Numbered from the stretch's first letter, positions 5,914 to 37,095 are shown. The stretch is 64,000 nucleotides of DNA from Nitrososphaeria archaeon (GCA_027078545.1 JALWXN010000004.1:1056001-1120000); one strand, 5' to 3'. Program-made: numbers and translations. The notes: generated by a model from the letters alone, not told the origin.

Positions 5914-6036
5914 TAGGAGACACCCCAGAACCTATTTAAAAGACTATTGAATATCCCGTCGTGAATATAAATAGGAACCGATGGAGGAGGGTTACTATGG
6001 ATGAGGAATCTATAAAAATGTTTGGGTGTGGAGGGA

Positions 6037-7899
6037 CTACTCCACCACGGGTATTCCAAACTTGATGGAGATCCTCTTCTTCTCCTCGTAGCTGATGCTG
6101 TCCGGATCCCAGAAGCCCTCGTAGGTCTGCCTGTAGAGTGGGTCGGACTCAAGCTTCTTGATATTCCTCTTATACCTCTCCTGGCTCAGGCTCTTGAGCC
6201 CAGTCCTCCTCAGATACTCCTTGAGGCTCATGGAGTACCTCTTGATCAGCCTATCCCTATACATCTCCGGCATGACGTTGTAGGTACAGAACGGCATTAT
6301 CCTCCCGTCTGGCCCGACATAGTGGATGTCACACCTCTGTATCCTGGCAACGTCATAGTTATACTCGTCCTGGAAGTGCATCATACCGACGTATAGCGTG
6401 TTGAGGTGGAACTTACCCAGTGAGCTGTAGTCATGCCTCACAAAGATGTCGAAGAACATCTTGTAGATCCTACCCCTCTTCCTCAGCTGCTCAGGCACAT
6501 ACTTCCTATCTATGAAGCTGGGTATCTTGGAGAGGAGCTTCATCAGGGCCATCTTCCTACTACCGCCCTTCCTCATATACTCATTCAGCTCCTTGATATA
6601 CTCGGCGAAGGACTCCACATCCATGAACTTCGGCAGCGGGGTTATCTTACCAGTCTTCTGGTCCTGGAAGATGTAGGTGGCGACGCCACATGCGAAGTGG
6701 TTAGTCATCTTGAACTGGTGCTCACCAGTCACTAGCTCAACGAACTCGCTGATCGGGGCTGTGAACGGGACTGAGAACCAGTGATCCATCAAGACCTCTC
6801 CATTGGTGCCCTCCTCCACAAGCTTGACAACATCGGGGATAGTTATCCTGAGCCTCTGCCTCTCATGCTTAGGCATCCTACCAACCAGGCTTACCGGCTG
6901 GTAGTTAAGACCCCTCACAACATCGTTGTGCTTCAGGGCGAAGTAGAGCATCTGGGCAACCTCATGGTCATTAACAGTCCTGATCACCGTCGGGACCAGG
7001 ACTATACCCATCCCAGCCTTCCTAGCCGCGTCGAATATGAAGGGGACCTCCCAATGGTTCTTCGGATTAGTGTATGGAGTAACACCGTCGAAGCTCATGT
7101 AGAGCGTGTTCACACCAGCCTCCCTAAGCTCCCTGAGATACTCAGGCCTACCCACGAAGTTTATACCTGTGGTGTTGAGCTGGACATGGATGAAGCCCAG
7201 CTCCTTAGCCATCTTCACGATATCCACTAGATCCTCCCTAAGAGTAGGCTCTCCACCAGTTATCTGTAGGGCCATGGCGGGGACGGGCTCCATACTCCTA
7301 GCCGACTCCATCATGAACCTGATGTGGTCTAGGGTCGGCTCATAGATATAGCCCGCCGCCTCCGCATAGAAGAAGCAGTACCAGCATGATAGGTGGCACC
7401 TATTGGTTATGACCAGGTTTAGGAGGGCCGTGTGGCTCTTATGGCGTGCACACAGCCCACAGTTGTATGGACATGGGTTGACCAGGTCTACGAATGGGTT
7501 GCTAACCCCATGCCCATCATAGGACTCCTTACTTTTCTTATAGAAGAACTCTGCATCGCTCCAGTATACCTCCTCCACCTCACCATGGTCTGGGCATACC
7601 TTCCTGATGTAGATAGCCCCATCCCTCTCGAAGACCACAGCCCTGATCAGGCTCCTACACTCGGGACAGATGCTCAGTGTGCTCTTAACCCTCTTCTCCC
7701 CCTCCCTAAGGGGGACCTTAGCCCTGATCTTAAACTGGAAGTCGACGCCCTCCTTAGGCATCGTCTCCTCGACGACCTTCTGGCCGACGAGGGCGAAGAT
7801 CATGCTGTCCTTGACCTTGCTAAGCTCGTCATAGTTTACATAGCCATCCTCCCTGAAGTACTTACTGATATCCAGCCTTATCTCCGACACTTCCACCAC
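6037..7899 (-). CDS. tes: Tetraether lipid synthase (GDGT-macrocyclic archaeol synthase, MJ0619 family radical SAM)
   Basis: N-terminal CPEC...CPDH metal site, CPYNCGLCARH auxiliary cluster, CHLSCWYC radical SAM motif, HFACG, and C-terminal MHFQD.YN.D..R..RC..H...IMPFCTYN. Confidence 0.88.
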   Translation of the reverse strand: MVEVSEIRLDISKYFREDGYVNYDELSKVKDSMIFALVGQKVVEETMPKEGVDFQFKIRAKVPLREGEKRVKSTLSICPECRSLIRAVVFERDGAIYIRKVCPDHGEVEEVYWSDAEFFYKKSKESYDGHGVSNPFVDLVNPCPYNCGLCARHKSHTALLNLVITNRCHLSCWYCFFYAEAAGYIYEPTLDHIRFMMESARSMEPVPAMALQITGGEPTLREDLVDIVKMAKELGFIHVQLNTTGINFVGRPEYLRELREAGVNTLYMSFDGVTPYTNPKNHWEVPFIFDAARKAGMGIVLVPTVIRTVNDHEVAQMLYFALKHNDVVRGLNYQPVSLVGRMPKHERQRLRITIPDVVKLVEEGTNGEVLMDHWFSVPFTAPISEFVELVTGEHQFKMTNHFACGVATYIFQDQKTGKITPLPKFMDVESFAEYIKELNEYMRKGGSRKMALMKLLSKIPSFIDRKYVPEQLRKRGRIYKMFFDIFVRHDYSSLGKFHLNTLYVGMMHFQDEYNYDVARIQRCDIHYVGPDGRIMPFCTYNVMPEMYRDRLIKRYSMSLKEYLRRTGLKSLSQERYKRNIKKLESDPLYRQTYEGFWDPDSISYEEKKRISIKFGIPVVE

Positions 7900-21601: not shown

Positions 21602-22171
21602 ATGGATATGCCCTACATAGAGGTTGACGACCCCTTCTACAGAGTCCTACACCCCAGACCCGCATACCTAATAGTCAGTGGCAGGGGCGACGACGTCAAT
21701 ATAATGGCGGCCAGCTGGGTAATGCCCATAAGCGAGGAGCCATGGACAGTCGGCCTAGCACTAGACCGTGAGACCTACACCTATGGACTCGTCAAGAAAT
21801 ATGGAGAATTCACTGTAAACGTGGTCACCATAGACGAGGTTGACCTGGTATACTACGTCGGCCACGTCAGTAAATATGAGGTCGACAAGATCAGGGAGAG
21901 GGGGATAGAGCTGGAGCCTTCGAAGGAGGTCGAGACCCCACACTACAAGGGGGCTATAGGATACCTGGAATGTAGGGTAGCAAAGATGATACCAGTGGGC
22001 GAGGTAGACCTAGTCATAGGAGAGGTCCTAGGGGCATATGCAGATAAGGATCTATTCACCCGATACGGCTGGGACCTCAGGAGGACGAAGATACTGATGC
22101 AGAACATTGGGAGGGGCTTCACAACCAACGAGTCCAGGGTCTACTACGCCTCCAAGGGTGGAGAAGGGTGA
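21602..22171 (+). CDS. Flavin reductase-like FMN-binding protein
   Basis: HPRPAYLI, NIMAASW, GEFTVNV, LECRV, GEV. Confidence 0.9.
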   Translation: MDMPYIEVDDPFYRVLHPRPAYLIVSGRGDDVNIMAASWVMPISEEPWTVGLALDRETYTYGLVKKYGEFTVNVVTIDEVDLVYYVGHVSKYEVDKIRERGIELEPSKEVETPHYKGAIGYLECRVAKMIPVGEVDLVIGEVLGAYADKDLFTRYGWDLRRTKILMQNIGRGFTTNESRVYYASKGGEG

Positions 22172-23289
22172 AGTACATAGAGACGATATTCAGCAACGTC
22201 TCCAGCATCCCGGCCGGGGAGATCAACAAGCTACACAGATCCCTACTCGAGGCCGACCTAGTCATACCCTACGGCTCGGGGAGGAGCTACTCATCCCTAA
22301 AGATACCCATGAGCCAATACGCGAAGCTGGACGACGCACCAGTAGTCCTGACACCGGAGGACACAGGCTTCCCAGGGAACGATATGTACGAGGCCCTGGA
22401 GAGGCTTACAAAGAAGTATGGCAGGATAGTCATGATCGTAAACTCTGGGAGCGGGGAGAGCTACGAGCCACTCGTACTGGCGAGGGACTTCGCCAGCTAC
22501 AGGGAGGAGGAGGGGCTAGAGGATAGGCTGGAGCTCTACGTAGTCACCTCTAACCCCCGGAGCAGCCTCGGGAGACTGGGGGAGAGGTATGGAGGGGTTA
22601 TCCACCTCCCCGGGGCTGAGAGGATAGAGATCGACTACCCAACAACGGGGATAATGGGCGACGTATTCGAGCTGGGAAGCCTACTCCTATTCCACACACT
22701 AGTCAGGATGAGGTATGAAGGCGTGGATAGCCATAGATCCATACTAGACACCTACATATCAAGGATAAGGGAGCTGATAGAGGAGCACGTGGAGTCGGAG
22801 GAGTATTCAAGGGTCCTCGACATACTCGAGAGGAGGAGCAACGTCTTCATAGGGGGTAGGGGAAGCGCCTACGAAGTAGCTACCATGCTAGTCATCAGGC
22901 TGAACCACATCAAATACGCTATCGGCGACCATGTATACAGGGCCAGGGGCTCAAACACGCCTAGGCCGAGGAAGGGGGACCTAGGCATACTCATATCATG
23001 CAGCGGCGAGACACCAGCAGTGATAAAATGGGCGGAGGACTTCACAAGGATAGGGATAGACATATTCTCCATAATAGGTAGGAGAGGCTCCACACTGGAG
23101 AGATATACAAAGTACTGCATAGTCCTAACCGAGTGTGAGGGCTACAGGATGGGGATCCCCAGGGACTTCTACCTATACGCATCCTTCCTACTAAGCCCAC
23201 TACCCATAAAGCTGATAACCAGGCTAAAGGAGAGGGGGCTAGTCCTCCCCGAGTCGATACTGAAGTACTACCACAGCATCATGGAGTAG
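22168..23289 (+). CDS. Tandem SIS-domain sugar-phosphate isomerase (6-phospho-3-hexuloisomerase-like)
   Basis: Two repeats: GSGRS...NSGSGES...MGDVFE and GRGSA...ISCSGET. Confidence 0.7.
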   Translation: MKYIETIFSNVSSIPAGEINKLHRSLLEADLVIPYGSGRSYSSLKIPMSQYAKLDDAPVVLTPEDTGFPGNDMYEALERLTKKYGRIVMIVNSGSGESYEPLVLARDFASYREEEGLEDRLELYVVTSNPRSSLGRLGERYGGVIHLPGAERIEIDYPTTGIMGDVFELGSLLLFHTLVRMRYEGVDSHRSILDTYISRIRELIEEHVESEEYSRVLDILERRSNVFIGGRGSAYEVATMLVIRLNHIKYAIGDHVYRARGSNTPRPRKGDLGILISCSGETPAVIKWAEDFTRIGIDIFSIIGRRGSTLERYTKYCIVLTECEGYRMGIPRDFYLYASFLLSPLPIKLITRLKERGLVLPESILKYYHSIME

Positions 23290-23293
23290 CTGG

Positions 23294-23830
23294 CTAGACC
23301 TTCACGACGTTATGCATATGCTTGATCAGGGCCTCAGTCCTCCTCCTATGCATAGGGTCATACGCAACGAAGATCGGCGCCTCCTCCCCGCCGAGGAACG
23401 TATTCCCGATGAAGGTCTTGGCCTTCCTCAGATACCTGAGGAAGTTATCCAGCTCGCTCCCGAGGAGGTATATATAGAGGTCATTAACCACGAGTATATC
23501 CCTATCAGAGCTCATAAAGTCGTTGAAGAACTCCTCCGCAACCCTGACATTCTTCTCGAAGACTCTATTCATCGCGGAGGGATCAGACGAGATGTTCGGG
23601 ACCTGGATCTCCCTCGAATACCTATAGATAGCGTTCTTAAATCCATAGATGAACTTAGAGAGCCTCATCCCAACCCCCTTGGACTGTGGGGCCAGGTCGA
23701 TGATGTATATCCTGTCGTCCAGCCCCCTCCGGATAAGCTCCCTCACAATCTCGGAGGTATACTTAGTCCTCCCACGCCCCGAGTCCGACAGGATGATCGT
23801 GTATCGATCGAGGAGCAGATCCACATTCAT
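23294..23830 (-). CDS. Small P-loop-fold protein with degenerate Walker A
   Basis: TIILSDSGRGRT, IIDLAP, LVVND; resembles small archaeal HerA/DUF87-like proteins. Start placed at ATG 23830. Confidence 0.6.
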   Translation of the reverse strand: MNVDLLLDRYTIILSDSGRGRTKYTSEIVRELIRRGLDDRIYIIDLAPQSKGVGMRLSKFIYGFKNAIYRYSREIQVPNISSDPSAMNRVFEKNVRVAEEFFNDFMSSDRDILVVNDLYIYLLGSELDNFLRYLRKAKTFIGNTFLGGEEAPIFVAYDPMHRRRTEALIKHMHNVVKV

Positions 23831-23954
23831 CTCTATAACATATGAAAATATGTTTCTACGAAAATAAGGTTGGGCCCCCAAAGCGGCCTAGAGATAGGCC
23901 CCAAGATATAGTTGCCATGCCTATCCATTGATTATCCAGGCGGTGTAGGAGGGG

Positions 23955-24581
23955 ATGCTGAGCCAGCTGGTGGACTATATTGTTGATAGGATTGTGGAGC
24001 TGGACTGGATGGCGGTGGCACTGGGAGTCCTTATAGAGACGATAATAGTCCCGATACCAAGCCCATTAATACCCATGGCCGCAGGCTTCGCCCTACTAAG
24101 CAGGGCCGAGGGCATAGGCTTCATAGCAACACTATTCATAAAGATCGGGCTGGTAGGGGCGGCCACAGCCACCCTGGCAAACCTACCCTTCTACTACATC
24201 GGGCTGAAGGGTGGGGAGCCCGTCATGAGGAGGATGTCCCGCTGGATAGGTGTGGACGAGGAGGAGATCGAGAAGGCCGTGAAGCTTATCGGTGGTGGGA
24301 GGCCTACACACCTCATCATCTATAGGGCCCTACCCATAATGCCCCTCTCCCTAGTCTCACTAGCCACCGGTGCGCTACGGAGGAGTACGAGGGAGTTCAC
24401 CCTATACACCTTCACCGGCTGCCTACCGAGATACGTATTCCTAGGATACCTGGGATGGGTGATGCAGGACCTCTACATGGAGATGGCAGACCTACTCGAC
24501 AGCCTAGAGACAGCCACGATAGTCTTAATAATCCTAGCCGCCGGAACATATATTCTCGTGAAGAGGCTCCTGAGGAGGTGA
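23955..24581 (+). CDS. DedA/VTT family membrane protein
   Basis: ETIIVPIPS...AG, YYIG..GG, RALP...LVSLATG. Confidence 0.9.
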   Translation: MLSQLVDYIVDRIVELDWMAVALGVLIETIIVPIPSPLIPMAAGFALLSRAEGIGFIATLFIKIGLVGAATATLANLPFYYIGLKGGEPVMRRMSRWIGVDEEEIEKAVKLIGGGRPTHLIIYRALPIMPLSLVSLATGALRRSTREFTLYTFTGCLPRYVFLGYLGWVMQDLYMEMADLLDSLETATIVLIILAAGTYILVKRLLRR

Positions 24582-24587
24582 AGACGT

Positions 24588-24803
24588 ATGGAGAAGCCCA
24601 GCCCAATAGTCTATAAACCCGGAACAGGCGGATTGAAGACCAGGAAGGGGAGGGGATTCTCCCTAGGCGAGCTTAGAGAGGCCGGTATAGACCTAAACAC
24701 GGCCAAGAAGCTGGGGATATACGTTGATATGAGGAGGAAGAGCATCCATAAAGAGAATGTGGAGGCTCTGAAGAAGTACCTCGAGGAGCTCAAGAGACAA
24801 TAG
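24588..24803 (+). CDS. rpl13e: 50S ribosomal protein L13e
   Basis: [15 protein letters not shown]...[18 protein letters not shown]. Confidence 0.95.
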
Positions 24804-25941
24804 CCTTGGCGAGCTTAAATGCTACTCCGGGAGCCTTCAACAACCTCCTCACAACACCCATCACATCCTCCCCATTAGCAATCTTCACAATGTCGTCCGG
24901 CTCCAAGACATCCGCCAGCTTATTCAGCTCCTCGTCAGACAGCTTCTCCAGGAAGCGCATAGCCTTCAAGCTATAACGTATCTTCTTACCCCACGGATCC
25001 TCATACCTCTCCACCCAGCGGGCTAGGGACGCCTCACTAGTATCCCCCTCGAGGACAGCGTCGGCAGCAGTCTCACCAGCCACGAGGCCCGCCACACCCG
25101 ATGGATGCATACCAGCACCCGTCAGGGGCATGACGGTACCAGCTGCGTCGCCTACAAGTATAAAGCCGTCGCCATAGGGCTTACTGATCATCCCACCTAT
25201 CGGGACCGGCGCACCCCTATAGTCGATCACCTGGGCACCCCCGAGCCAGTCACTATGCTCCTTCACAAACTTATCTAGGTAATACTTCGCACTCCCACCC
25301 CTGACGCCCACACCTACCTCGGCCACCTTATCACTCTTGGGGAAGATCCATGCATAGCCCCTTGGAGCCACCTCGCTCCCAAGGTAGAAATACGCTATGT
25401 CGGGCTCATCCAGCCTAACATTAGCCATGAGGTAGATAAGCGTCGGTATAGGCTCACTCTTCTCCCTGACACCCAGCGACTTAGCCACTACGCTGTGGTA
25501 GCCATCAGCACCTATAACCACCTTCGCCGTATAGACACCATACTTAGTCTTAACCTTCATCACACCATCCACACGGGAGACCGCCTCGACAGGCTCCCTC
25601 ACCCGTATATGGGCCCCATTCTCGGCAGCCTTCAGGGCGAGCTCCTGCAGATACATCGTCTTGTTGATCGAGTACGTCTCGGCGAAGCCTATATCGATAT
25701 ACTTCCCGTTCGGGGCATATACCCTGGGGATAACCTTATGCAGGACTATATAGGGCTTCGGATCAATACCCAGGTCCTTGAAAGTACCTATACTCGTAGC
25801 CTCTCCACAGGGCTTCTTAGCCATGATAGTCTCGTTCTTCTCTATAAGGAGGGTCTTAACACCCTTCTCAGCAGCCTTCATAGCAGCAGGGATACCAGCT
25901 GGCCCAGCACCGACAACGATGACGTCATAATCGGTGGACAT
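24790..25941 (-). CDS. Geranylgeranyl reductase family flavoprotein (digeranylgeranylglycerophospholipid reductase-like)
   Basis: [19 protein letters not shown] (YxWxFP), GDAAG..PLTGAG. Confidence 0.88.
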
Positions 25942-26019: not shown

Positions 26020-28392
26020 CTAGCCACCCACCGAGCCAGAGTTCTCAACAACCTGGAGCCTAGACACCTCACCCTCCCTATAAACCTCCACAACACTCTT
26101 AAAGACATCTGACACCCGGATCTCGAAGTCATGGGTTATGACTATCACCTGGCTAAGGAGTCCATTATTGATCAGCTCCTCGATCGTCTCCAAGACAGCA
26201 TTCTTCTTCTCCCTATCCAGATGTGGGAATGCCTCGTCGAAGACCATGAAGTCGAGTGTGTAGGACTTCCCACCCAGCTGGGAGATCAGGCTCCCAAGCC
26301 CCAGTCTAAAGGCTAGGCCGAGGACAGTGACCTCACCCCCACTCAACGTGTTTATCTCCCTCTTCCTATTCCCCTCTAAGACCTCGATCTTCACACCATG
26401 CTCAGTAGTCCTTAGATTAATCCTGAATAGGCTCGACATTCCCTCTAGGAAGATGTTTATCATCCGCTCAAGGCTGGGCACGACAACGTTGTTGACGAAA
26501 TAGTTGGGGAATCCCCTCTCAGCAAATACCTTGTCCAACACCTCCAGGACCTCTATCTCCGAAGTTACTTCCTCGAACCTCCTCCTCTTCTCGACATACT
26601 CGCCATACTTTTTGCGCATCTCATCCACGTCTTTAAGCCTCTCACTAAGAACCCCCATCTCTCTCTGAAGCTCAGCCATCTTCTCCTCAAGACTTTTGAT
26701 ATTATTCTTAATCTCTCTAATCCTCGACCTCCCCTCCTCGATCAGCTTTCCCAGCCCATCTAGCATATCATCCGTGAGGCCGAGTTCATCCATCTTTTTA
26801 TCCAATGTCTCCTTGAGGCTCTCCAGCCTACCCATCTCTTTCCCAAGGTGTCCCAACACCTTCCTAGCCCTCTTAGCCCTAGAGAGCCTCTCCACCAACC
26901 CATTCCTAAAGCTCGTGAGATCCCTATGCAGAGTGGGGCTGATCATGATCCCCAGCCTATCAGCCTCCTTAACAAGCCTCTCCAAGAGTGTCTTTGAAAG
27001 CTCTCCAGGCCTCTCTATCAACCCATCAATATCTACCACACCTATTTCCGAGAGGATGTCTCCATACCCATCCTTGATCGACTTTATACTATTGCCATAC
27101 TCCCCCTCCTTATTGCTGATCGTCTTTTCCAGATTCCTCGCGGTCTTCAGCCTCTTATTCAGGGCCTCATATGTATCTTTAAGCCTTGGGATCCTCTCGT
27201 CGAGCTCCTTTATCTGCTCCATATAGCTATTTATCAAGCTCTCCCTATGCTCCTCAGTTAGCTCCGACCCGCATACTGGACACTTATCACCAGCCTTCCT
27301 AAGCTCCTCCACCCCCTTCTCCAACTGCCTCTTGATAGCCTTCATGGCCGAGATATTCTCTAGGACTTGGGACAGCTCTTCGCTAAGCTCATCTATAGAC
27401 CTTCCATTAGTCACTCTTTCCAGTCTCTCCCTAAGCCTCGTCAGCTCATCACGGATCGACTTGGCCCTCTCAATACTCGATACCAGTGAGATATAGTCAT
27501 CAACCTTCTCCACCAGCATCTCTATATCCTCAATCAGGGTATCTAACTCGTCCAGCACAATGTCTCTATACTCCTCTGGGAGCTCCCTCCTCCTCCCCTC
27601 TATCTGGGTCTCTAAACTCTTCACATTTCTGTAGAGAGCCTCAACATCGCTCATCTTCCTAATCCTATCTTCTAGGTCACTATTCTCCTCTCTAAGCTCC
27701 TCGAGCTGCTTCTCCACATTCTCCAACTCCTTTTCCTTAGACCTCAGCTCAGCCTTGATGGTCTCCTCATACTCCTTTATGGCTTCAAGGGTTACCTCCT
27801 CTATCCCATTGGCGCGGAACCATCCCTTCAACTCATCTATCTTTCTCTGTAGCTCCTCCCTCTCCTCTCCTAGACTCTTGAGATCCTCTGTAACCCTATC
27901 CCTCACCCTGTTGAAGAAGTTTATGTCCAGGATCTCTATGAGGAGGCCCCTCAACTCTCTCTCCTTCATGTATAGGGGATCCTCGGTCCTACCCTGCCTA
28001 ACAATATAGGTCTTTAGGAGCGAATCATAGATATGCCCGGTCAGCTCTTCGAAGCTGGGGGCCTTCCTCGTTGAGCTACCTATAGCCATATTCCCCCTAC
28101 CATTGTCGAAGATGTATACCGACCCATCGTCCGAGACCAGCTCTACTACTGCCTTCGCCTCATACTCTCCACCTAGGTGGTATCTACTCGCCAGCCTCTT
28201 TACACCCGACTCCCTTCCATACGCCTTTCTCATAGCCCCATAGGTGAGGGCGTCTACGAAGAACGTAGTCTTACCCGCCCCGTTATGCCCAAGAACTAGT
28301 ATCGGCTGGCCTAGGCCATCGATATCCAGCTCCTCTAAGGTATATAGTCCGAAGTTCTCGACCCGTATCCTACCAAGCCTGAGCTTAGACAC
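26020..28392 (-). CDS. rad50: Rad50/SbcC-type SMC ATPase
   Basis: Walker A GHNGAGKTT, Q-loop, long coiled coils, central CPVCG zinc hook, LSGGE signature, Walker B/D-loop VFDEAFPHLD, ITHD. Confidence 0.9.
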   Translation of the reverse strand: MSKLRLGRIRVENFGLYTLEELDIDGLGQPILVLGHNGAGKTTFFVDALTYGAMRKAYGRESGVKRLASRYHLGGEYEAKAVVELVSDDGSVYIFDNGRGNMAIGSSTRKAPSFEELTGHIYDSLLKTYIVRQGRTEDPLYMKERELRGLLIEILDINFFNRVRDRVTEDLKSLGEEREELQRKIDELKGWFRANGIEEVTLEAIKEYEETIKAELRSKEKELENVEKQLEELREENSDLEDRIRKMSDVEALYRNVKSLETQIEGRRRELPEEYRDIVLDELDTLIEDIEMLVEKVDDYISLVSSIERAKSIRDELTRLRERLERVTNGRSIDELSEELSQVLENISAMKAIKRQLEKGVEELRKAGDKCPVCGSELTEEHRESLINSYMEQIKELDERIPRLKDTYEALNKRLKTARNLEKTISNKEGEYGNSIKSIKDGYGDILSEIGVVDIDGLIERPGELSKTLLERLVKEADRLGIMISPTLHRDLTSFRNGLVERLSRAKRARKVLGHLGKEMGRLESLKETLDKKMDELGLTDDMLDGLGKLIEEGRSRIREIKNNIKSLEEKMAELQREMGVLSERLKDVDEMRKKYGEYVEKRRRFEEVTSEIEVLEVLDKVFAERGFPNYFVNNVVVPSLERMINIFLEGMSSLFRINLRTTEHGVKIEVLEGNRKREINTLSGGEVTVLGLAFRLGLGSLISQLGGKSYTLDFMVFDEAFPHLDREKKNAVLETIEELINNGLLSQVIVITHDFEIRVSDVFKSVVEVYREGEVSRLQVVENSGSVGG

Positions 28393-29651
28393 TACCTCCT
28401 CCCCTCCTCCAAATATTTAAGGGCGGCCTCGACCACCCTCCTCCTAAAACCTTCATCCCTATTCCCTAGGAGACCCTCAATATATCTCTTGAGTGCCTCC
28501 TCTATACTCTCGATGGTGGTTTCTCCACTCCTCTCCACTGCCTTGCTACCCATGAATCTCGACCTTATCTTCAGTGCCCAGCCGCCACCCTCTGTCAGGA
28601 GGTCCCTAAGCTCCTTCCTGACCTCGTCTATCCACTCTAGGAGGTCGGGTTTCCAGTAGGATAGGTGTAGACTCACCATTGCTCCCTCCAGCTTATCGAT
28701 CCCTTTCACCACATTATCCACAACCTCTTGTGGGCTGGAGTACTCGTCGAGCTCCATCCTGAAGATGTACATATTCATGGTATCTACTGGTACCTTCTCA
28801 ACCCTTGGGCTACCCCCGGTGAGCTCCACGTCTAGGAAGACCTTCTCGTCACCAGCCTCGGAGAATCTTAGCTTGTTCAGACTCCCCGAGTAGTATGCGG
28901 GGTACTCACCAATCCTCTGGGTTACATGGATATGCCCCAGAGCTGCATAGTCAAATTCTCCAAGCCTCAGATCCCTGGTGTATATCTCCGGGATGATCTT
29001 GACACCCGGATCCATAGCCTCAACCTCCACCTTCCCAAACAGTCTCGTGAATCTCACCCTGTCCACCTGTACATGTCCAAGGAGGATCTTGTACCTCCCC
29101 TTGGCACTCCTGAGCTGGCGCTCCAGGTATTGATAGGTGTCCTTCCTCCAATCCGTGTCTTGATCCTTGTAGGGTACTACGTAGGGGAGGGGTATTATCG
29201 AGGCGTCCCCGTGCTCAATACCGACGAAGTCCTCGCTGTAGAACCTCTCGGGATCCGGATACACGTCGAAGTAGCGTATGTGGTCGGATATCCTCCTGGT
29301 GAAGATGGCTAGGCTTGACCTGGAGACCTCCCTAGTAGCCACGTCATGGTTCCCTGCCACGATATACACATTTATCCTGTTATCGACAGCCCTCTCCAAG
29401 AACTCCGCTAGGCGGCGTTGGTAGATAAGGCTAGTCCTAACATCATCGAAGACATCCCCAGCTATGAGTATAACGTCTATACCCCTCTCCACAGCATAGT
29501 CCAACGCCCTATCCATGTTTGAGAGTGTCACATCATTTATCCTCCTCATCAAGCCCTCCACGCCACCCTGGATATTAGGGAGTATCTCTACCCCCCTATG
29601 GGTGAAGCCCAGGTGTAGATCCGCCATATGTAGGAACCTCATACCCACCAC
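28392..29651 (-). CDS. mre11: Mre11/SbcD metallophosphoesterase nuclease
   Basis: DLHLG, AGDVFD, AGNHD, GH, ALGHIH, YSGS. Confidence 0.92.
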   Translation of the reverse strand: MVGMRFLHMADLHLGFTHRGVEILPNIQGGVEGLMRRINDVTLSNMDRALDYAVERGIDVILIAGDVFDDVRTSLIYQRRLAEFLERAVDNRINVYIVAGNHDVATREVSRSSLAIFTRRISDHIRYFDVYPDPERFYSEDFVGIEHGDASIIPLPYVVPYKDQDTDWRKDTYQYLERQLRSAKGRYKILLGHVQVDRVRFTRLFGKVEVEAMDPGVKIIPEIYTRDLRLGEFDYAALGHIHVTQRIGEYPAYYSGSLNKLRFSEAGDEKVFLDVELTGGSPRVEKVPVDTMNMYIFRMELDEYSSPQEVVDNVVKGIDKLEGAMVSLHLSYWKPDLLEWIDEVRKELRDLLTEGGGWALKIRSRFMGSKAVERSGETTIESIEEALKRYIEGLLGNRDEGFRRRVVEAALKYLEEGRR

Positions 29652-31526
29652 CTAAACATCGTCGACCACGAACCTCCTCTCAGACCCCTTCTTCCGCTTG
29701 ATTACCCACTCCATCGCGTCATAGACCTTCATATCCCTGTCACTCCCGGGAGGCCTCACAGTGTCTCCACATATGTTTATCGTCTTGAGGACCATTGGGA
29801 AGACCGATCTGATGTTGTGGTAGACCACCCTACCCCTCCCAAGCTTAGCTATCAACTCCCTAAACATCCTCTTATTCTCAAGCCCGGAGATTACGGCGTT
29901 AATATCCGAGTCGTCGGTAAGCTGGAATATGAACATCGCCCAGAGCATGGATATTACGTCACTATCCAGGTCGCCCGGCTTCTGGTCGATAGGTACAACG
30001 ACGACACCATACTTCCTATACTCCCTGGCCAGGCGCCCGAAGACCGTGCTCTTATCCTTCTCTAGGAATCGGTGGGCCTCCTCAAGATAGATGACCAGCT
30101 TATGATACATCCCACTAGGCTTTTTAGGAGCCGCCATCAGCTCATCGATCCGATCCATGATCTTCTTGGCGAGGATATTGGCTATACTCATGTATACAAC
30201 CACATTCCTACTATACCTGCCGCCCAAGTCTATCGTGACATGCTCACCCCTATCAACCAGCAGCCCCACAATGTCATCATATAGCTCAGCGTCATCCCAT
30301 CTAAAGGATATTGGTAGACCCCTGAGGTTGTAGATCCTCCTCTTCAGAGCGCCTATCGACTGCCTAAGCCCCGACATATCCCTACCACTCAGTTTACCCT
30401 CTAGTTCCTCCATCAGCTCCACCATGTCTTTTGCCAACTCGCCGGGGGAGGCGCTACGCGGGAGGTCAATAAGATTCTGACGTAGCAGGAGGCGTGCAAG
30501 GCTATCTGCACTACTCCTGCTGAAGTATAGGAGGGTGAGTGCCCAGTGCTCAGGCTTTATGAGGAGGTCGGGCAGCCCCTCCGACTGTCTAATTTTATTA
30601 ATATCTTTTATTGCCTCCAGTACCTTGGCCCTGTATACCTCGAGGTTATGGATACTCACCTCGGTGGGTGAGAGGGGCTCGAGGATCGTGGCCAAGGTGT
30701 CCACGGAGACGTCGTATAGGGGGATACGTAGTATACCGTCGCCACCAACCTTATTATACTCGTCCTTGTCTACGCAGTAGATATAGACATACTTCTTACC
30801 GTTGACCATCTTCATCCTGGCTGAGGCTCCCTGGCAAACCTGCTGGTGCCTATCGTCTAGGAGGTAGTATGAATACTCACCCTGTACATCGAAGACCAGT
30901 AGTGTAAGCTTCTCCTCGTGATGTAGATATCCGTGGACATATGCGTTGAGTATCAGTAGGTTCGCGAGATACGTCTTCCCAGTCCCCGCCTTGCCGAAGA
31001 TGCCGAAGCTCAGCTGGTGGAGGTCATAGATGTCATCAGCAACGATGACCTCCTCACCCGTGACGAGGTCCAGCATCCCGATGGGGAAATACCTATCGAA
31101 GTCAGCCTCAGGTATGAACCTCCTCGCCAAGGGGCCCTGCTCCATAGGGACTATCGAGCCGTGCTGCGGGATGCTTGAGACCTTGGAGGCCTCCCCCAGA
31201 GCAACGTCATACTCGGCTAGGGGGATGACGGAAATACTTGGGGAAGCCACCTCCTCCCTAATATACTCCATATAGGGCTCCTGTAGGGCGGTGCCCTCGA
31301 GGATCCTATAGATCTTCATATGGCTCTCCGGGACACCATATCCAATGTCGAGGACCACGCCTAGGTATAGCTTCTCCCCACCCTCCACAACTATCACCCT
31401 ATCCTTCTCAACCTGCTCCAGCCTAGCCTCTGGCGAGAGGTCAATAACTATACCCTCCGAGATCGAGGCCCCCCTAACCCATCCAAACACCTTCCTAGAC
31501 ACCCATACCCACCTCCATGAAGACAC
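29652..31526 (-). CDS. herA: HerA-family ATPase/helicase with N-terminal HAS barrel
   Basis: GKAGTGKT, FDVQGEY, LEEAHRF, AREYRKYG, DQKP. True start may be GTG 31502, which has GGAGGT upstream. Confidence 0.9.
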   Translation of the reverse strand: MSSWRWVWVSRKVFGWVRGASISEGIVIDLSPEARLEQVEKDRVIVVEGGEKLYLGVVLDIGYGVPESHMKIYRILEGTALQEPYMEYIREEVASPSISVIPLAEYDVALGEASKVSSIPQHGSIVPMEQGPLARRFIPEADFDRYFPIGMLDLVTGEEVIVADDIYDLHQLSFGIFGKAGTGKTYLANLLILNAYVHGYLHHEEKLTLLVFDVQGEYSYYLLDDRHQQVCQGASARMKMVNGKKYVYIYCVDKDEYNKVGGDGILRIPLYDVSVDTLATILEPLSPTEVSIHNLEVYRAKVLEAIKDINKIRQSEGLPDLLIKPEHWALTLLYFSRSSADSLARLLLRQNLIDLPRSASPGELAKDMVELMEELEGKLSGRDMSGLRQSIGALKRRIYNLRGLPISFRWDDAELYDDIVGLLVDRGEHVTIDLGGRYSRNVVVYMSIANILAKKIMDRIDELMAAPKKPSGMYHKLVIYLEEAHRFLEKDKSTVFGRLAREYRKYGVVVVPIDQKPGDLDSDVISMLWAMFIFQLTDDSDINAVISGLENKRMFRELIAKLGRGRVVYHNIRSVFPMVLKTINICGDTVRPPGSDRDMKVYDAMEWVIKRKKGSERRFVVDDV

Positions 31527-32103
31527 GTGTGATAGTCTCGATCACCTTGATATCGTTCCCACTATTCCTGAGGAACTCCTTGTAGAGCTCCGGCAGGGTG
31601 AGCCTCCTACCCAATACCCTGGATAGGTAGGCCGCCAGGTTCCTAACGAGGATCATATCCCTCAGGTCGAGATACCTGAGGAAGCTTAGGTCGGGCTCCT
31701 CACCGAGCAGCGAGGCGACCTGGTCATCGGGGAGGAGATAGACAGGGTTGTGGGGCTTCACGAAGAGCCTGAAGCTCCTCTGGATATTTCCTGCGCTGTC
31801 CACCTCGTATATGGGATGGGTGGTGAAGAGGAACTCGTATAGCCTAGTAGTATCCACATTCATGATGGAGGATCTATTCAGCCTAGGCTGGAACTTACCC
31901 GCATACTTCGGGTCTATCGCCTTGGACCCGGCCACCACTACTACTCCTCCCTCCCCAGTATCTATGTATAGGAAGTTGCCAGGCCTCACCCTGTCCAGCC
32001 TATCGGGGAGGAGGTAGACCACCACATCACTACCCTCCAGCCTATACACCTCACCAACCGCATCCTCAAGGCCTATCCTACCAAGGTCTATACCACCAGT
32101 CAT
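31495..32103 (-). CDS. Standalone HAS-barrel domain protein
   Basis: VGEV...PGNFL...HNPVY...DLSFLRYL pattern; lies between nurA and herA; ATGA overlap with the nurA stop. Confidence 0.65.
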   Translation of the reverse strand: MTGGIDLGRIGLEDAVGEVYRLEGSDVVVYLLPDRLDRVRPGNFLYIDTGEGGVVVVAGSKAIDPKYAGKFQPRLNRSSIMNVDTTRLYEFLFTTHPIYEVDSAGNIQRSFRLFVKPHNPVYLLPDDQVASLLGEEPDLSFLRYLDLRDMILVRNLAAYLSRVLGRRLTLPELYKEFLRNSGNDIKVIETITRVFMEVGMGV

Positions 32104-33317
32104 AGTATCCTCCACCTCTTCCCAATACTCTTACCAGTCATGGAGTATTCGGGGGGCTGGCCCAGGAGGAGCTCCGATAGGATAGACTCGAGGTCAGACC
32201 TCTGCCTAGAATATATCACGGCTGCATGGTGTGCCTCGGAGAGGAGGTATGGATAGCCACCTCCACGCCTAGCATCTAGATAGACCGAGTTAAACACCCT
32301 CTCAAGGCTATGGGGATCCCAGTCGAAGTGGTCGGTATACTCAACCATGAATACGTTGGGCATGGGGAGATCCAGGGGCTCTACATGCATATATACAGTT
32401 GAGACCCTGTAGACCCCCTCAATGGGGTCTGACACCACCCGGAAACGGCTGCTCCTACTATTCCTGGGTAGGAGCCGACCCATTATCACCCTATCCCTGT
32501 ACTCAGGCACGTCGGGGCTTATCAGACCAGCCGTCTTTAGACACTTGATTATCGAGCTCCTACCACTATAGTATACACCCACCGGGAGGACCCTACCACC
32601 ACCCATCTCCCCAACATCCCTGAATAGCTCGTCATACATCCCGACATACTCCTTCCTAACACTGGCCGAGTACGTCGATGCATAGCCGAGGTTAAAGTTC
32701 TCGTCGAACATAACCACGGAGAGGTCTAGACCCTCACTCTCCATGATGTCTAGGAGGTACTTCACAAACCTCCTTACGAAGTGGTGCTCCACCTCCTTAC
32801 TGATAAGCTCCCTAGGCTTATCATCAAGATCCCTAGGTATCACGAGGTAGGTCAGGTGGTAGGGCTCACCTGGAGACCTATATACATGGCCATCCTTGAA
32901 GATGGTGTATTGATACCCGATGTTGATGATCATCACGGGGATGGCGAAGTGCCCCCCGGGGACGTGGTAGCTCGCGTCATAGGCTGCTAGAACCATATCA
33001 CCAACGTTCTCCAGCGCCGACTCCTCACTGGGCATCGGGTAGTAGGTGAAGGGCTCGAGGGGTTCTACATATGTATACTTCCCCTTAATGCTACATCCAT
33101 ATTTACCCGGCTCGAGGTACTTGGATATCTCCTCGGCAACCTCATCACCCGGGGTTACATCAATATCCTTAGACAGCTTATCCCTGATCTCCTCGAGATA
33201 GAGGCTGATGATGCCCGGGTCAAACTCTCCAGGAGCCCAGCCGATCTCTCCAAGCTCATAGACTATATATCCATCCTCCTCACGCCTACTCACGGGGCTC
33301 GACACGGCAACCACCAT
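32100..33317 (-). CDS. nurA: NurA-family nuclease
   Basis: AAYDAS (motif I Asp), MFDEN (second Asp), GYPYLLSEAHHAAVI; upstream of herA. Confidence 0.8.
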   Translation of the reverse strand: MVVAVSSPVSRREEDGYIVYELGEIGWAPGEFDPGIISLYLEEIRDKLSKDIDVTPGDEVAEEISKYLEPGKYGCSIKGKYTYVEPLEPFTYYPMPSEESALENVGDMVLAAYDASYHVPGGHFAIPVMIINIGYQYTIFKDGHVYRSPGEPYHLTYLVIPRDLDDKPRELISKEVEHHFVRRFVKYLLDIMESEGLDLSVVMFDENFNLGYASTYSASVRKEYVGMYDELFRDVGEMGGGRVLPVGVYYSGRSSIIKCLKTAGLISPDVPEYRDRVIMGRLLPRNSRSSRFRVVSDPIEGVYRVSTVYMHVEPLDLPMPNVFMVEYTDHFDWDPHSLERVFNSVYLDARRGGGYPYLLSEAHHAAVIYSRQRSDLESILSELLLGQPPEYSMTGKSIGKRWRIL

Positions 33318-33524
33318 CCGGAGTAGCTAGGATTGTGTTTGGGTGCTGCCCCAGACACATTTCCAGTAGCAACTATGCGGGGCGAATTATTTATAGGAGA
33401 ATTGACGCACAGGTGGCTATAGAGCAGCCGGATACTTCTATGTGGGGGGAAATATTTAAAGGAAAATCGACACGTATCCCTAGGTAGCCCCCTTAATTAT
33501 TACCTATGCCGAATAGAGTTTCTA

Positions 33525-34307
33525 TTGACCCCCCGGTCCAAGGTGGTGGCATTGGCCAGGACACGGTCATTCAGGAAGGTTCTAGAGACGCCCGAGGGCG
33601 TCACCCAGCTAGCAGTCGTCGGGGACATGGCCGACATCATAGTCGAGCCCCACGACGACGACACCATAGTCCTACACGGCTTCATACTGGGTGGCGACCC
33701 ACCCCTAATAGACGTCTCCGAGGGGGAGAAGCAGATAGACATCACGATCAAGAGGGCCAAGGCCGAGAGCAGGCTATACTCACTCAAGATGAAGATGTTC
33801 GTCCCCATAGAGAGGATAACAGAGATGCTCAGCATAACCCTAGAGATAGGCGACGTAAGGATAGACGGCGTCCCAGTCAAGATCCTAAAGATAGACACCT
33901 CCAACGGAGACGTGATGGTGGGGGGTGTAAACACTGAGCAGGCAAAGCTCTCATGTAGGAATGGAGATGTCATGTTCAGGGGAGGATCCTTCAAGGACGG
34001 ATACTTCACCACGATAAACGGCGACGTGAGGCTAGAGATACTCATGGATAGGGGCTACAGCCTCTACGCCTCCTCGAAGAGGGGTAGGATAAGGATATCC
34101 CTACCAGTAAACACATCGGCAAAGATCAGGGCCAGGGCACTGAGGGGGAGGGTCATGATAACACCGAAGTCAGCGATAAGGGAGGATGAGGGTGAGGAGG
34201 TTAGGACGATAGTCTTCGGGGATGGAGACGCGGAGATAAGGCTGGAGACCCTAGACGGCGACATAAGTATAAACCTCTTCGCCACACCCCCCGTGGAGAC
34301 CGAGTAG
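33525..34307 (+). CDS. DUF4097 family beta-strand repeat protein
   Basis: Repeated T/S-x-N/x-G-D-V/I units (EIGDV, TSNGDV, CRNGDV, TINGDV, TLDGDI). Confidence 0.8.
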   Translation: MTPRSKVVALARTRSFRKVLETPEGVTQLAVVGDMADIIVEPHDDDTIVLHGFILGGDPPLIDVSEGEKQIDITIKRAKAESRLYSLKMKMFVPIERITEMLSITLEIGDVRIDGVPVKILKIDTSNGDVMVGGVNTEQAKLSCRNGDVMFRGGSFKDGYFTTINGDVRLEILMDRGYSLYASSKRGRIRISLPVNTSAKIRARALRGRVMITPKSAIREDEGEEVRTIVFGDGDAEIRLETLDGDISINLFATPPVETE

Positions 34308-34389
34308 ATCCTCTGGAGCCCCGGAATACTTTCACTACCCATATTTTTAAAGAGCCTCCACAACCCAGTTATTGTAGGAGGGGAAACTA

Positions 34390-34971
34390 GTGGTAAGGAA
34401 GTATAGGGTCTCGGGCTTCACCCTCCACTTCCAAGTCTCCCCGAGGACTGGGCTCCTCGAGAACATAGTCCTAGTCCTAGAGGTTGAGGGCGACCCGAAC
34501 AAGGTATTGAAGATGCAGAACATCCCCCTCGAGATAGCCATCGAGCTGGAGAAGTTCGCCACGACAGAGTCCCAGCTAAACATCGAGAACAACGACTTCA
34601 GGATGAGTATCTTCGACGTCCTGATGGAGATTCCCAACGTTGAGAAGATGCTTAGGCAGAGCGTTAAAGAGATAGTTATAAACAAGCTCCACAAGGATAG
34701 GAATGTCTACTCCGCGGAGGTCCACCTGGTAGACACATATAGCGGTAAACCCGCGGTTGTCGAGATGATACCGAGCCACGCACTACTCCTCTCGGTCATG
34801 GGTAACATACCCGTCTACGTCTCCGAAGACCTCCTGATGGACAGGAATAGCGAGCCGACAGGGCCTGAGGACTACTTCAACATGTTCATAGACGACGAGA
34901 TACTCGACCCCGACGAGATGGGCTTCTTCGACGACTGGGACGACGAGGACGACGACCTGGAGAACCTATAG
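34390..34971 (+). CDS. Bifunctional nuclease (DUF151) family protein with acidic tail
   Basis: EIVINKL...YSAEVHL...IPSHALLL...IPVYVSEDL. Confidence 0.7.
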   Translation: MVRKYRVSGFTLHFQVSPRTGLLENIVLVLEVEGDPNKVLKMQNIPLEIAIELEKFATTESQLNIENNDFRMSIFDVLMEIPNVEKMLRQSVKEIVINKLHKDRNVYSAEVHLVDTYSGKPAVVEMIPSHALLLSVMGNIPVYVSEDLLMDRNSEPTGPEDYFNMFIDDEILDPDEMGFFDDWDDEDDDLENL

Positions 34972-35754
34972 CGACAATAGGTCCAGCAGCCTCTCCAAGA
35001 GGTGGGGTGTAGAGGCGGAGACAATCTTTATACCATACACCTTGCTGAGCCTGACATCCCTGGAATCATCCTGGGTTATCCATACATGTCCACCCGCCTC
35101 CCTAACTATCAACTGGCTAGCCGCTATATCGAAGACTCTGAGACTTCCCCTAACGTCTACATGGGCATCTAGCCGGCCCTCAGCCACCATACAGTCCTCC
35201 AGAGCCGCGCTCCCGAAATGCCTAGGATAATTCGTGTATCTCAGCAGCTCAAGGGTGGTGGAGACACCGGGGTATTGATGTACGATGGAGATGGATATGA
35301 AGGCATCGATAGTCTTCAAAGTCCTCGACACCCTTATCTCCCTACCGTCCTTATAGGCTCCCCTCCCCCTGTAGGCTGTGTAGGTCTCCCCCGTGAAGAT
35401 GTTCCTAACTATCCCCGCATAGACACCCTCCATAGAGTCGGACTCTGCTATCGCTAGTGAGACCGCGCTGAAGGGGATACCCCTACTCAGATTACTCGTC
35501 CCGTCTATAGGATCCACCACCAGTATCCAATCCTCATCTGGCTCGTAGTCGTCGAACCACTCCTCACTGATGACCCTCGGCCTAAGCCCCCTATCAAGTA
35601 GGAACTCCCTGAGGGCGGATGCAGATGTATAGTCCATCCTCCTGCCATACTCCTTAGGGTCATCTGGGCCCTGCTCCATATTCCTCAGGACTGCGTCGGA
35701 CATATATTCAGATGCCGCCCTGAGTATCTCACTGGCCTCCCTAAAGCTGAGCAT
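34966..35754 (-). CDS. Inositol monophosphatase / FBPase family
   Basis: ISEE, VDPIDGTSN, GSAAL, FDIAA..LIVREAGG. Confidence 0.92.
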   Translation of the reverse strand: MLSFREASEILRAASEYMSDAVLRNMEQGPDDPKEYGRRMDYTSASALREFLLDRGLRPRVISEEWFDDYEPDEDWILVVDPIDGTSNLSRGIPFSAVSLAIAESDSMEGVYAGIVRNIFTGETYTAYRGRGAYKDGREIRVSRTLKTIDAFISISIVHQYPGVSTTLELLRYTNYPRHFGSAALEDCMVAEGRLDAHVDVRGSLRVFDIAASQLIVREAGGHVWITQDDSRDVRLSKVYGIKIVSASTPHLLERLLDLLSL

Positions 35755-37095
35755 CTAGCCCCTAGCCTCCTCATCAGCAATCTTGAGGGCCTCGTCCAGA
35801 GCCTCGACACCCTTGTCAATATCCTCCTCATTAACGATGAGTGGCGGTGCTATTACGAAGTGGCTTATCCAGTTCATCACCAGGACACCCTGCTCCCTCA
35901 TCCTCGCGGCAACCCTATCCGTCATCAGCCTCCTACCCGCCAGCTTATCCTCCCTAGTGTTGAAGGGTTCCTTGGTCTTCCTGTCCCTCACGATCTCCAC
36001 AGCCCAGAAGAGGCCTAGCCCCCTCACATCACCTATACTCGGATGCCTATCCATAAGCTCCCTGAGCCTCTTACCCAGGTATTCACCCATACGTCTACTC
36101 CTCTCGATCAGGCCTAGCCTCTTATACTCCTTTATACTAGCCTCTATAGCCGCCATCGTAACAGGGTGGAAGGCGAAGGTATGTCCAACAGCGAAGAAGT
36201 GGTCCTCGAAGAAGCTGGCTACCTCCCGATCCACAGCCGTTATCCCTACAGGCACGTAGCTAGAGGTGGCGCCCTTAGCCGTGGTCATGATATCCGGCTT
36301 AACATCCCAGTTCATATGGGCGAACCACTTCCCTGTACGCCCCCAGCCAGCCATCACCTCGTCGAATATGAGGAGGAGGCCATGCTCATCAGCGATCTCC
36401 CTGAGCCTCTCATAATACCCTGGGGGAGGCACGATCACACCATTGGTCCCAGTCACGGGTTCCATGAAGATAGCCGCCACATTCCCCTCCCTCCTAACCA
36501 TATAGTCCACATACTCTGCACAGGCTAGGCCACACTCTGGATATGACAGCCCGAAGGGGCATCGGTAGCAGTAGGGATCAGGTGCGAAGACAGTGCCCCT
36601 AACATTGGTATGGAGCTCCACCGAGACCCTCCTAGGATCACCCGTGAGGGATATCGCCCCAGCCGAGGAGCCGTGGTAAGACTCATACCTAGCTATGACC
36701 TTATAGGCCGGCGCCCTATACATCCTAGCTATCTTCAGGGCATCCTCATTAGCCTCCGCCCCACTGACGGAGACGACGAACTTTGAGAGGTTCTCGGGAA
36801 CAACCTCTCTAAGGGCTTTGAGGGCACGGGCCCTGATCTCATGGGCATATGCCGGGCCTAGATATGCGAGGTCGTCCAGCTGCTGCTTAACAGCCTCTAT
36901 AACATTCCTATTCCCATAGCCAAGGTTCACACATACCAGCTGGCTACTGAAGTCTAGGAACCTCCTACCATCCCTAGTGATTAGGTATGCACCCTCACCC
37001 GAGACGAACTCTAGTGGAGGCCTCCAGTCCCTCTGATACCTCCACGTACCAAAGGCAAGCTCATGGTAGATCTTTGACGGGTCACCCGGATCCAT
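35755..37095 (-). CDS. Class III PLP aminotransferase (omega-amino acid/4-aminobutyrate type)
   Basis: SGAEANE, SYHG, FDEVMAGWGRTG, TAKG, GHTF. Confidence 0.92.
   Translation of the reverse strand: MDPGDPSKIYHELAFGTWRYQRDWRPPLEFVSGEGAYLITRDGRRFLDFSSQLVCVNLGYGNRNVIEAVKQQLDDLAYLGPAYAHEIRARALKALREVVPENLSKFVVSVSGAEANEDALKIARMYRAPAYKVIARYESYHGSSAGAISLTGDPRRVSVELHTNVRGTVFAPDPYCYRCPFGLSYPECGLACAEYVDYMVRREGNVAAIFMEPVTGTNGVIVPPPGYYERLREIADEHGLLLIFDEVMAGWGRTGKWFAHMNWDVKPDIMTTAKGATSSYVPVGITAVDREVASFFEDHFFAVGHTFAFHPVTMAAIEASIKEYKRLGLIERSRRMGEYLGKRLRELMDRHPSIGDVRGLGLFWAVEIVRDRKTKEPFNTREDKLAGRRLMTDRVAARMREQGVLVMNWISHFVIAPPLIVNEEDIDKGVEALDEALKIADEEARG

Follow-up and report, generated by a model that had tools for sequence, protein, structure and literature searches.

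End resection in archaea is the textbook task of HerA and NurA acting with Mre11 and Rad50, a system that has been studied as a four-protein machine. Here we describe a five-gene form of this system in a 64,000-nucleotide (nt) stretch of DNA from a Nitrososphaeria archaeon (GCA_027078545.1, JALWXN010000004.1:1056001-1120000), hereafter the window, positions in which serve as coordinates unless a contig or locus is named. On its minus strand, from 26020 to 33317, lie five coupled head-to-tail open reading frames (ORFs) corresponding to nurA, a gene that we call X, herA, mre11 and rad50, with enzymes of the kind encoded here termed X-type below. A sequence-only reading of the window had placed five co-oriented genes with overlapping or abutting ends at exactly this position, and both the arrangement and every motif that it quoted were recovered from the translations. 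The nearest record in a scan of one genome per species is a Candidatus Geothermarchaeota metagenome-assembled genome (MAG) whose HerA is 90% identical, and the source organism is itself a Candidatus Geothermarchaeota MAG. In order of transcription the genes are as follows.

32100-33317, minus strand: nurA, X-type NurA nuclease, operon gene 1, 405 amino acids (aa), PF09376 match
31495-32115, minus strand: X, stand-alone HAS-barrel protein with a helical tail (predicted fold)
29652-31526, minus strand: herA, X-type HerA translocase with its own predicted HAS barrel, up to 624 aa, DUF87 match
28392-29651, minus strand: mre11, 419 aa, Metallophos and TIGR00619 matches
26020-28392, minus strand: rad50 with a CPVC zinc hook, 790 aa, PF04423 match

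At the junctions the nurA stop overlaps the X ATG at 32103 (ATGA), X shares its last 8 nt with a herA frame that starts at a GTG, a second GTG coming 4 nt past the X stop, the herA TAG directly precedes an mre11 GTG with an ATG 9 nt further on, and mre11 and rad50 overlap by 1 nt (TAGTG). X is translationally coupled to nurA as well as herA. It is 206 aa long from GTG 32115 and 202 aa from ATG 32103, the latter being the more likely start; herA may begin at GTG 31502 or GTG 31490 instead of 31526, and mre11 likely begins at ATG 29642.

X had no match in Pfam or NCBIfam, and the Pfam HAS-barrel model PF09378 matched 0 of 12 archaeal X proteins at E ≤ 1. The HAS (HerA-ATP synthase) domain is a six-stranded barrel found at the N-terminus of HerA and of the F1, V1 and FliI ATPases. 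An AlphaFold model of X built from an alignment of 12 homologues (predicted local distance difference test (pLDDT) 84.9, predicted template modelling score (pTM) 0.84) consists of a beta-barrel at approximately residues 18-130 and a helical bundle at 130-206. Compared by VIA-align with 48,161 PDB representatives, the model found as its top five matches HerA N-terminal domains (residues 1 to approximately 130) at Z 8.0-10.2, these being 9c1m (10.2), SsoHerA 4d2i (9.2), 8wiv (8.8), 8j4u (8.5) and DrHerA 7f6d (8.0), with the crown barrels of the FliI, V1 and F1 ATPases ranked next at Z 6.7-7.5. In Foldseek all 47 matches at E ≤ 1e-3 among those listed were HerA-type chains (E approximately 1e-5). 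Because the best fold matches are HerA N-terminal barrels followed by FliI, V1 and F1 crown barrels, X is by its predicted fold a HAS barrel, as the sequence-only reading had supposed for the middle gene. Neither Pfam, NCBIfam nor the model gave any indication of an ATPase or known catalytic domain in X.

In a profile alignment X falls into register with residues 11-193 of HerA (hhalign probability 64.8%, E 6e-5), and in the predicted models the X and HerA barrels have an identical order of secondary structure elements including a helical insert. This fits an origin of X by duplication of the HerA N-terminus, with the helical bundle replacing the ATPase. As the operon HerA retains its own barrel, X represents an additional barrel and not one half of a split gene; a split-off piece of HerA was ruled out, the operon HerA aligning with solved HerAs from residue 10-12 onward. 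X belongs to a rare family: when 1.84 billion representatives were searched with its profile, 32 clusters were returned, most of 194-218 aa and the rest shorter pieces, and those that have a name, such as the ones from Bathyarchaeota and Baldrarchaeia, carry the annotation 'hypothetical protein'.

By sequence, all four enzymes of the operon retain their catalytic motifs. NurA matches PF09376 over residues 163-368 (34.8 bits, cut-off 21), and across 16 archaeal X-type homologues D114, E177, D205 and H363 are invariant together with a C-terminal K396...K400; going by motif order, D114, E177, D205 and H363 would correspond to the catalytic residues of solved NurA. HerA matches DUF87/PF01935 at 63 bits, and its Walker A (GKAGTGKT), Walker B (LEEAH) and arginine finger (AREYRK) motifs are conserved among 28 homologues. 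The canonical HerA equivalogs match C-terminal stretches of it only, at 37.4 bits for NF040937 (cut-off 800) and 37.0 for NF040819 (cut-off 970), the anti-phage model NF042943 scores 44 bits (cut-off 800), and DrHerA was undetected from the operon HerA by sequence at E ≤ 1e-3. From residue 10 to residue 607, its full length, the HerA model (pLDDT 91) can be aligned with solved HerAs at Z 21-28.6, and the protein is predicted to keep the HAS barrel, the RecA-like ATPase and an inserted helical bundle. Among these matches the defence proteins TdpA (28.6) and Sir2/HerA lie at Z 25-28.6 and the repair HerAs at 21-24.7, including SsoHerA 4d2i (24.7), TkHerA (24.0) and the Deinococcus and Thermus HerAs (21-22).

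Mre11 carries the phosphoesterase motifs DLH, GDVFD, GNHD and GHIH and matches Metallophos (62.5 bits) and TIGR00619 sbcd (78.4 bits, cut-off 77.65), while it falls short of the archaeal Mre11 equivalogs NF041029 (47.9 bits, cut-off 600), NF041030 (24.3 bits, cut-off 550) and NF041031 (19 bits, cut-off 500). Rad50 has a PF04423 zinc hook (43.9 bits, CPVC at approximately residue 370), SMC_N and SbcC Walker B matches, and Walker A (GHNGAGKTT), Q-loop, signature (LSGGE), Walker B/D-loop (DEAF) and H-loop (THD) motifs. It scores 145 bits with PRK03918, 122 with a second archaeal Rad50 model and 70 with sbcc; against the archaeal equivalogs NF003034 and NF041034 its 145 and 122 bits fall under the cut-offs of 700 and 1000. 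The D-loop of SbcC is DEGF.

In order to place the four enzymes we inferred unrooted trees by IQ-TREE quick searches (LG+C20) with support from the SH-like approximate likelihood ratio test (SH-aLRT), excluding partial sequences, near-duplicates and one weak Rad50-like ORF; the references were canonical sequences from Thermoproteota only, plus three SbcC and one SbcD. HerA falls into an archaeal X-type clade of 31 rows (99), a bacterial clade of 26 rows (95) and a canonical Thermoproteota clade of 18 rows (95). In the Mre11 tree the canonical sequences split off at 99 and the archaeal X-type, bacterial X-type and Escherichia coli SbcD sequences radiate on the other side; Rad50 gives a three-way split into canonical (100), X-type (90) and SbcC (86). 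For NurA there is a canonical (83) and a bacterial (100) group, the latter surrounded by the archaeal X-type rows. All four enzymes thus lie outside the canonical Thermoproteota clades, the canonical sets separating at 95 (HerA), 99 (Mre11), 100 (Rad50) and 83 (NurA). The sequence-only reading would have been refuted by enzymes that all branch within these clades and a middle gene that is no HAS barrel, and neither outcome was observed. As to the proposal that Mre11 and Rad50 are SbcCD-like, Mre11 does pass TIGR00619 and scores higher on it than on the archaeal Mre11 models, but it does not group specifically with SbcD. Rad50 has the DEAF D-loop but is not specifically SbcC-like, its best models being archaeal Rad50 models and its tree splitting three ways.

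The same five genes in the same order were found in 10 of the 10 family genomes in which X was found, and an X-type HerA in 12 of the 13 genomes of the family. Beyond the family, the full nurA-X-herA-mre11-rad50 order is conserved in at least 20 archaeal loci among 80 public loci with a relative of the operon HerA, bearing out by survey the five-gene synteny first seen in the window. These loci are labelled Geothermarchaeota, Nitrososphaeria, Bathyarchaeota, Thermoproteota (including a Kor3 MAG) and Promethearchaeati (Asgard), and in several further archaeal loci, including a Njordarchaeota contig, the gene order is interrupted by contig ends. As it recurs in 10 related genomes and at least 20 public archaeal loci, the five-gene order goes beyond chance. 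X lies invariably between nurA and herA, both in the 10 related genomes with X and in approximately 30 public archaeal loci, and was present in only 3 of 201 sampled Thermoproteota genomes.

Individual loci vary. One Nitrososphaeria MAG (L036) has an opposite-strand HerA-like gene (581 aa; 5388-7133, minus strand) between the operon herA and mre11, followed by approximately 1.9 kb without a match to the operon profiles. In two Thermoproteota PSS bins (L062 and L076) nurA-X-herA is followed by a short opposite-strand Mre11-like ORF at the contig end, with no co-oriented mre11-rad50.

The arrangement of nurA, a stand-alone HAS-barrel gene and herA had been put forward in the sequence-only reading as a bacterial one, and it is real: Chloroflexota loci do carry a homologous gene. 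Relatives of the operon HerA at 23-28% identity occur in Dehalococcoidia, Anaerolineae, Chloroflexia, Thermomicrobiales, Melainabacteria and one Actinomycetes MAG, and in the Chloroflexota loci a gene of 190-230 aa lies immediately upstream of herA, and immediately after nurA in L099, L107 and L108. A profile comparison of this small bacterial protein with X gave a match over 160 columns (hhalign 84.9%, E 6e-6) in which the GEV and P-x-H landmarks line up, and 6 of 10 bacterial X homologues match the Pfam HAS-barrel model (PF09378, best E 5.3e-5). The ESM Atlas clusters nearest X are likewise bacterial proteins, from Cyanobacteriota and Chloroflexota, which partly carry HAS-barrel or DUF8166 (PF26500), the latter on 10-15% of members. 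The HerA signature motifs also follow the bacterial pattern, G(I/V)FGKSGTGK and (I/v)DQRP occurring in X-type HerAs of both archaea and bacteria and ILA-TG-GKS and VSQRP taking their place in the canonical protein. Profile hidden Markov models of the archaeal X-type give E-values of 1e-64 to 1e-84 with bacterial HerA, compared with 1e-15 to 1e-22 for the canonical one. With three clades and unrooted trees, a sister relation of the archaeal X-type to bacteria rests mainly on architecture, motifs and profile scores.

In the Chloroflexota genomes behind L094, L089, L064, L101 and L083 the sole SbcC/Rad50 (853-886 aa) is far from herA and, where positions are comparable, either on another contig or hundreds of kilobases away. 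Among the bacterial loci mre11 adjoins herA only in those of the Thermomicrobiales type, with SbcC/Rad50 still remote; Mre11 and Rad50 are therefore genomically split in Chloroflexota, SbcC/Rad50 being remote even where mre11 directly follows herA. A 1320-aa 'HerA' in Sphaerobacter (L083), considered as a possible NurA-X-HerA fusion, proved to be an ORF-calling artefact in a high-GC antisense frame, the real HerA starting near residue 785.

The sequence-only reading had offered two options, an operon that displaces the canonical system or one that accompanies it. The source genome is 92% complete and its sole Rad50 zinc hook and sole Mre11/SbcD are both in the operon. The canonical HerA model NF040937 gave no full-length match in the source genome or in any of 17 genomes sampled from its order, which include a single-contig one; its best match there was a partial one of 125 bits. 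Full-length matches do occur in Nitrosopumilaceae-like relatives of the class (family f6, 350-385 bits) and in families f18 and f24 of the phylum (282-326 bits), which cluster with f6 in the HerA tree, and the canonical operons of such genomes read nurA-herA-mre11-rad50, lacking X but in the same order. Displacement is the better of the two options: the single Mre11 and Rad50, the failure to find a canonical HerA in the 17 genomes of the order, the syntenic housekeeping flanks and the lack of a plasmid copy (a plasmid collection searched with the operon HerA gave no match) favour replacement of the canonical operon by the X-type operon in the source lineage.

A second NurA-HerA pair is encoded elsewhere in the genome, outside the window.

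G000:C4:41019-43400 (locus L009), minus strand: overlapping herA2 (474 aa; 5017-6441 in the locus) and nurA2 (335 aa; 6398-7405 in the locus)

The pair sits among the housekeeping genes for PolB, ThrRS and GatE. Of 41 related genomes, 34 have a conserved HerA2 (40-61% identity), with a weak or no match in the Nitrosopumilaceae-like family, and no match to the X-type mre11 or rad50 profiles was found in the 12 kb around the pair. HerA2 fits none of the curated HerA equivalogs. We rejected the pair as the canonical system on its NF040937 score (44.7 bits, cut-off 800), its very long, unplaced branches in the trees and the missing mre11-rad50 match; it is an old, unnamed NurA-HerA lineage of thermophilic Nitrososphaeria, unrelated to the operon pair. 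Two more DUF87/HerA-like ATPases (498 aa and 547 aa) without an adjacent NurA are found at G000:C4:347438-348457 and G000:C1:65554-66714.

The flanks of the operon are housekeeping genes, for a geranylgeranyl reductase, an aminotransferase and an inositol monophosphatase, the reductase gene following a 78-nt spacer 3' of rad50. The reductase and aminotransferase genes, the only two flanking genes searched for, adjoin the operon in related genomes too. Just upstream, on the plus strand, lie a DUF4097 'toastrack' gene (33525-34307) and a gene with a bifunctional-nuclease domain (PF02577; 34390-34971). The intervening spacer is as follows.

33318-33524, no strand assigned: intergenic candidate promoter region upstream of nurA, shared with the divergent DUF4097 gene

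This putative promoter region of 207 nt is A/T-rich and on inspection contains two TATA-like boxes, TTTAAATA and TATAAATAA. A scan for sigma-70 promoters and terminators gave counts at shuffle level and is uninformative for an archaeal host. As had been pointed out, rad50 is AT-richer than its surroundings, although slightly (GC 0.49-0.50 versus 0.52-0.55 in the flanks); this stretch codes for a Lys/Glu-rich coiled coil and has a strong purine skew, and since the low GC reflects coiled-coil composition it is by itself no sign of foreign origin.

The operon evolves quickly. When the source genome was compared with two others of the genus, the five operon proteins were 33-44% identical, the adjacent reductase 87%, the flanking aminotransferase 73-75% and, over the same genomic distance, HerA2 59-61%. 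Against the closest (sister) genome the ratio of nonsynonymous to synonymous substitution rates (dN/dS) was 0.088-0.267 for the operon genes, highest in Rad50, and 0.023-0.063 for seven flanking genes (22168-25941 and 33525-37095). As all ratios are well under 1, the operon genes are under purifying selection and surely functional.

Putting these observations together, we consider it probable that the operon encodes the main end-resection machine of Geothermarchaeota, a distinct and old X-type branch of the system in which X is a third subunit of HerA-NurA. That the operon is the resection machine of the host is likely; for X as a stable subunit where HerA and NurA meet, we would put the odds at about even. 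In this machine, whose biochemical roles and every contact of X we infer, Mre11-Rad50 would recognise, trim and hold the DNA end, the HerA hexamer would pump duplex DNA, and a NurA dimer docked on the HAS-barrel ring of HerA would degrade the 5' strand, so that a 3' tail remains for recombination. In the Deinococcus complex, and likewise in Sulfolobus, NurA docks on the HAS-barrel face (PMC9960219), and X would be placed at this face of the HerA ring, as an extra ring, adaptor or gate suited to the greater size of both NurA and HerA in the X-type. X would best be explained as a part of the interface because the HAS-barrel ring is the dock of NurA and X is encoded between, and coupled to, nurA and herA. 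Of the distinct five-component end-processing machine proposed at the outset, the conserved, non-canonical five-gene operon is therefore established, while the joining of X to the complex is an inference.

Several points weigh against a main resection machine of this kind. At approximately seven archaeal loci (L048-L051, L055, L057 and L072) nurA-X-herA occurs without adjacent mre11-rad50. The source genome being a 92%-complete MAG, a canonical cluster may have been overlooked, and the well-conserved NurA2-HerA2 could share a housekeeping role. The operon dN/dS is 2-8 times that of the flanking genes, unusually fast for a core repair machine, and this fast evolution, which is unexplained, is the chief point in favour of a role related to conflict.

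A first alternative, which we regard as unlikely, accepts the operon as a repair machine but takes X to be non-structural, a transient assembly factor, inhibitor or decoy that would occupy NurA or cap HerA until an end is engaged. A HAS barrel, the very surface bound by NurA (PMC9960219), with no ATPase or known catalytic domain and with quick divergence (24-40% identity within the family) would suit such a role, but the strict co-occurrence of X with both neighbours and its translational coupling to them fit a stoichiometric partner at least equally well.

A second alternative, of somewhat lower probability still, is that the operon is an accessory or defence system degrading the free ends of invading viral or plasmid DNA, with X as a sensor or regulator and NurA2-HerA2 doing the housekeeping. 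The rapid divergence and higher dN/dS of the operon relative to its flanks point this way, as do the patchy phyletic spread over archaea and bacteria, the occurrence of nurA-X-herA without mre11-rad50 in several lineages and the conservation of a second NurA-HerA pair in the genome, and a 2026 review describes bacterial NurA-HerA as acting mainly against viral DNA (PMC13748450). The best full-length fold matches of HerA also include TdpA and Sir2/HerA, though the repair HerAs are not far below. However, the operon holds the genome's only Mre11-Rad50, the search of 17 genomes of the order turned up no canonical HerA, its chromosomal site between housekeeping genes is stable across genus and family, there are no neighbouring defence genes, no Sir2 or DUF4297 effector alongside and no plasmid copies, the NF042943 score is far under its cut-off and each dN/dS is far under 1.

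A broader and decidedly speculative possibility, to which we give little weight, is that X builds a second or mixed HAS-barrel ring on HerA forming a gated antechamber that selects DNA ends, that the rapid co-evolution of the five genes reflects conflict with viral inhibitors or viral DNA ends, and that one machine serves both repair and defence in deep-branching archaea (including Asgard) and in Chloroflexota. Recent horizontal acquisition from bacteria (Chloroflexota or Cyanobacteria) is very improbable. In its favour, motifs and nurA-X-herA architecture are common to bacterial loci, Mre11 scores better with the sbcd model than with archaeal ones and rad50 is slightly AT-richer than its flanks. 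Against it, the archaeal X-type HerA clade (31 rows, 99) is apart from the bacterial one (26 rows, 95) with Mre11 and Rad50 behaving alike, the operon HerA shares no more than 22-28% identity with its bacterial counterparts, 12 of 13 family genomes have the operon in conserved synteny and its GC is near flank values. By these sequence criteria the archaeal operon appears to be no recent bacterial import, and 'bacterial-like' here means common to bacteria and archaea, with no recent uptake from bacteria.

The X-type is a separate lineage of the whole system with a conserved fifth component, which in at least one archaeal order takes the place of the canonical one and which extends to Bathyarchaeota, Korarchaeota-like and Asgard MAGs, with its three-gene core in Chloroflexota and cyanobacterial relatives. 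An annotation of 'HerA/NurA present' conceals two different machines, and the way in which a 2-fold NurA dimer meets a 6-fold HerA ring may not be the same in the X-type. The unusually fast evolution of a supposed core repair operon calls for explanation. Some of the bacterial carriers are in culture, one of the loci coming from a strain of Thermalbibacter longus, and this offers a route to the function of the free HAS barrel. Our literature searches turned up no account of a stand-alone HAS barrel that partners HerA-NurA, of DUF8166, or of HerA or NurA in Geothermarchaeota.

Among known systems, the NurA-HerA of Deinococcus radiodurans and Thermus thermophilus is described as a two-protein complex, and we know of no third barrel gene between nurA and herA in these bacteria. 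Like the X-type it combines NurA with a HerA hexamer, NurA sitting on the HAS-barrel ring (7f6d, 7wrw; PMC9960219). The anti-phage HerAs of Sir2-HerA/Nezha, DUF4297-HerA and TdpAB match the full-length HerA fold at Z 23-28.6 and their N-terminal barrels are the best matches of the X barrel, whereas the operon lacks a Sir2, DUF4297 or TdpB-like effector and partners HerA with NurA and Mre11-Rad50. Bacterial SbcCD resembles the operon in that Mre11 passes the sbcd cut-off and the DEAF of Rad50 is near DEGF, yet the zinc hook here is of Rad50 type, and neither SbcC nor SbcD is specifically grouped with X-type rows in the trees. The bacterial nurA-(HAS-barrel protein)-herA loci of Chloroflexota, Melainabacteria/Cyanobacteriota and some Actinomycetes share a homologous three-gene core in the same order, but their HerA, NurA and Mre11 fall into clades of their own, Rad50/SbcC is elsewhere in the 5 genomes checked, and the bacterial X matches the Pfam HAS-barrel by sequence while the archaeal X does not.

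The closest comparison is with the canonical herA-mre11-rad50-nurA operon of Sulfolobus, Pyrococcus and Thermococcus, the archaeal synteny being given as a four-gene cluster in the 2026 review (PMC13748450). Both are built from the same four families of enzymes, with their catalytic motifs intact, and presumably do the same job, resection of the 5' strand at DNA ends. They differ in that the X-type proteins reach 5-15% of the equivalog model cut-offs, their Walker A and other signature motifs are different and all four lie outside the canonical clades. X-type HerA is longer (median 581 aa versus 506 aa), as is X-type NurA (360-417 aa as against 278-397 aa), and the X-type operon has the extra gene X between nurA and herA.

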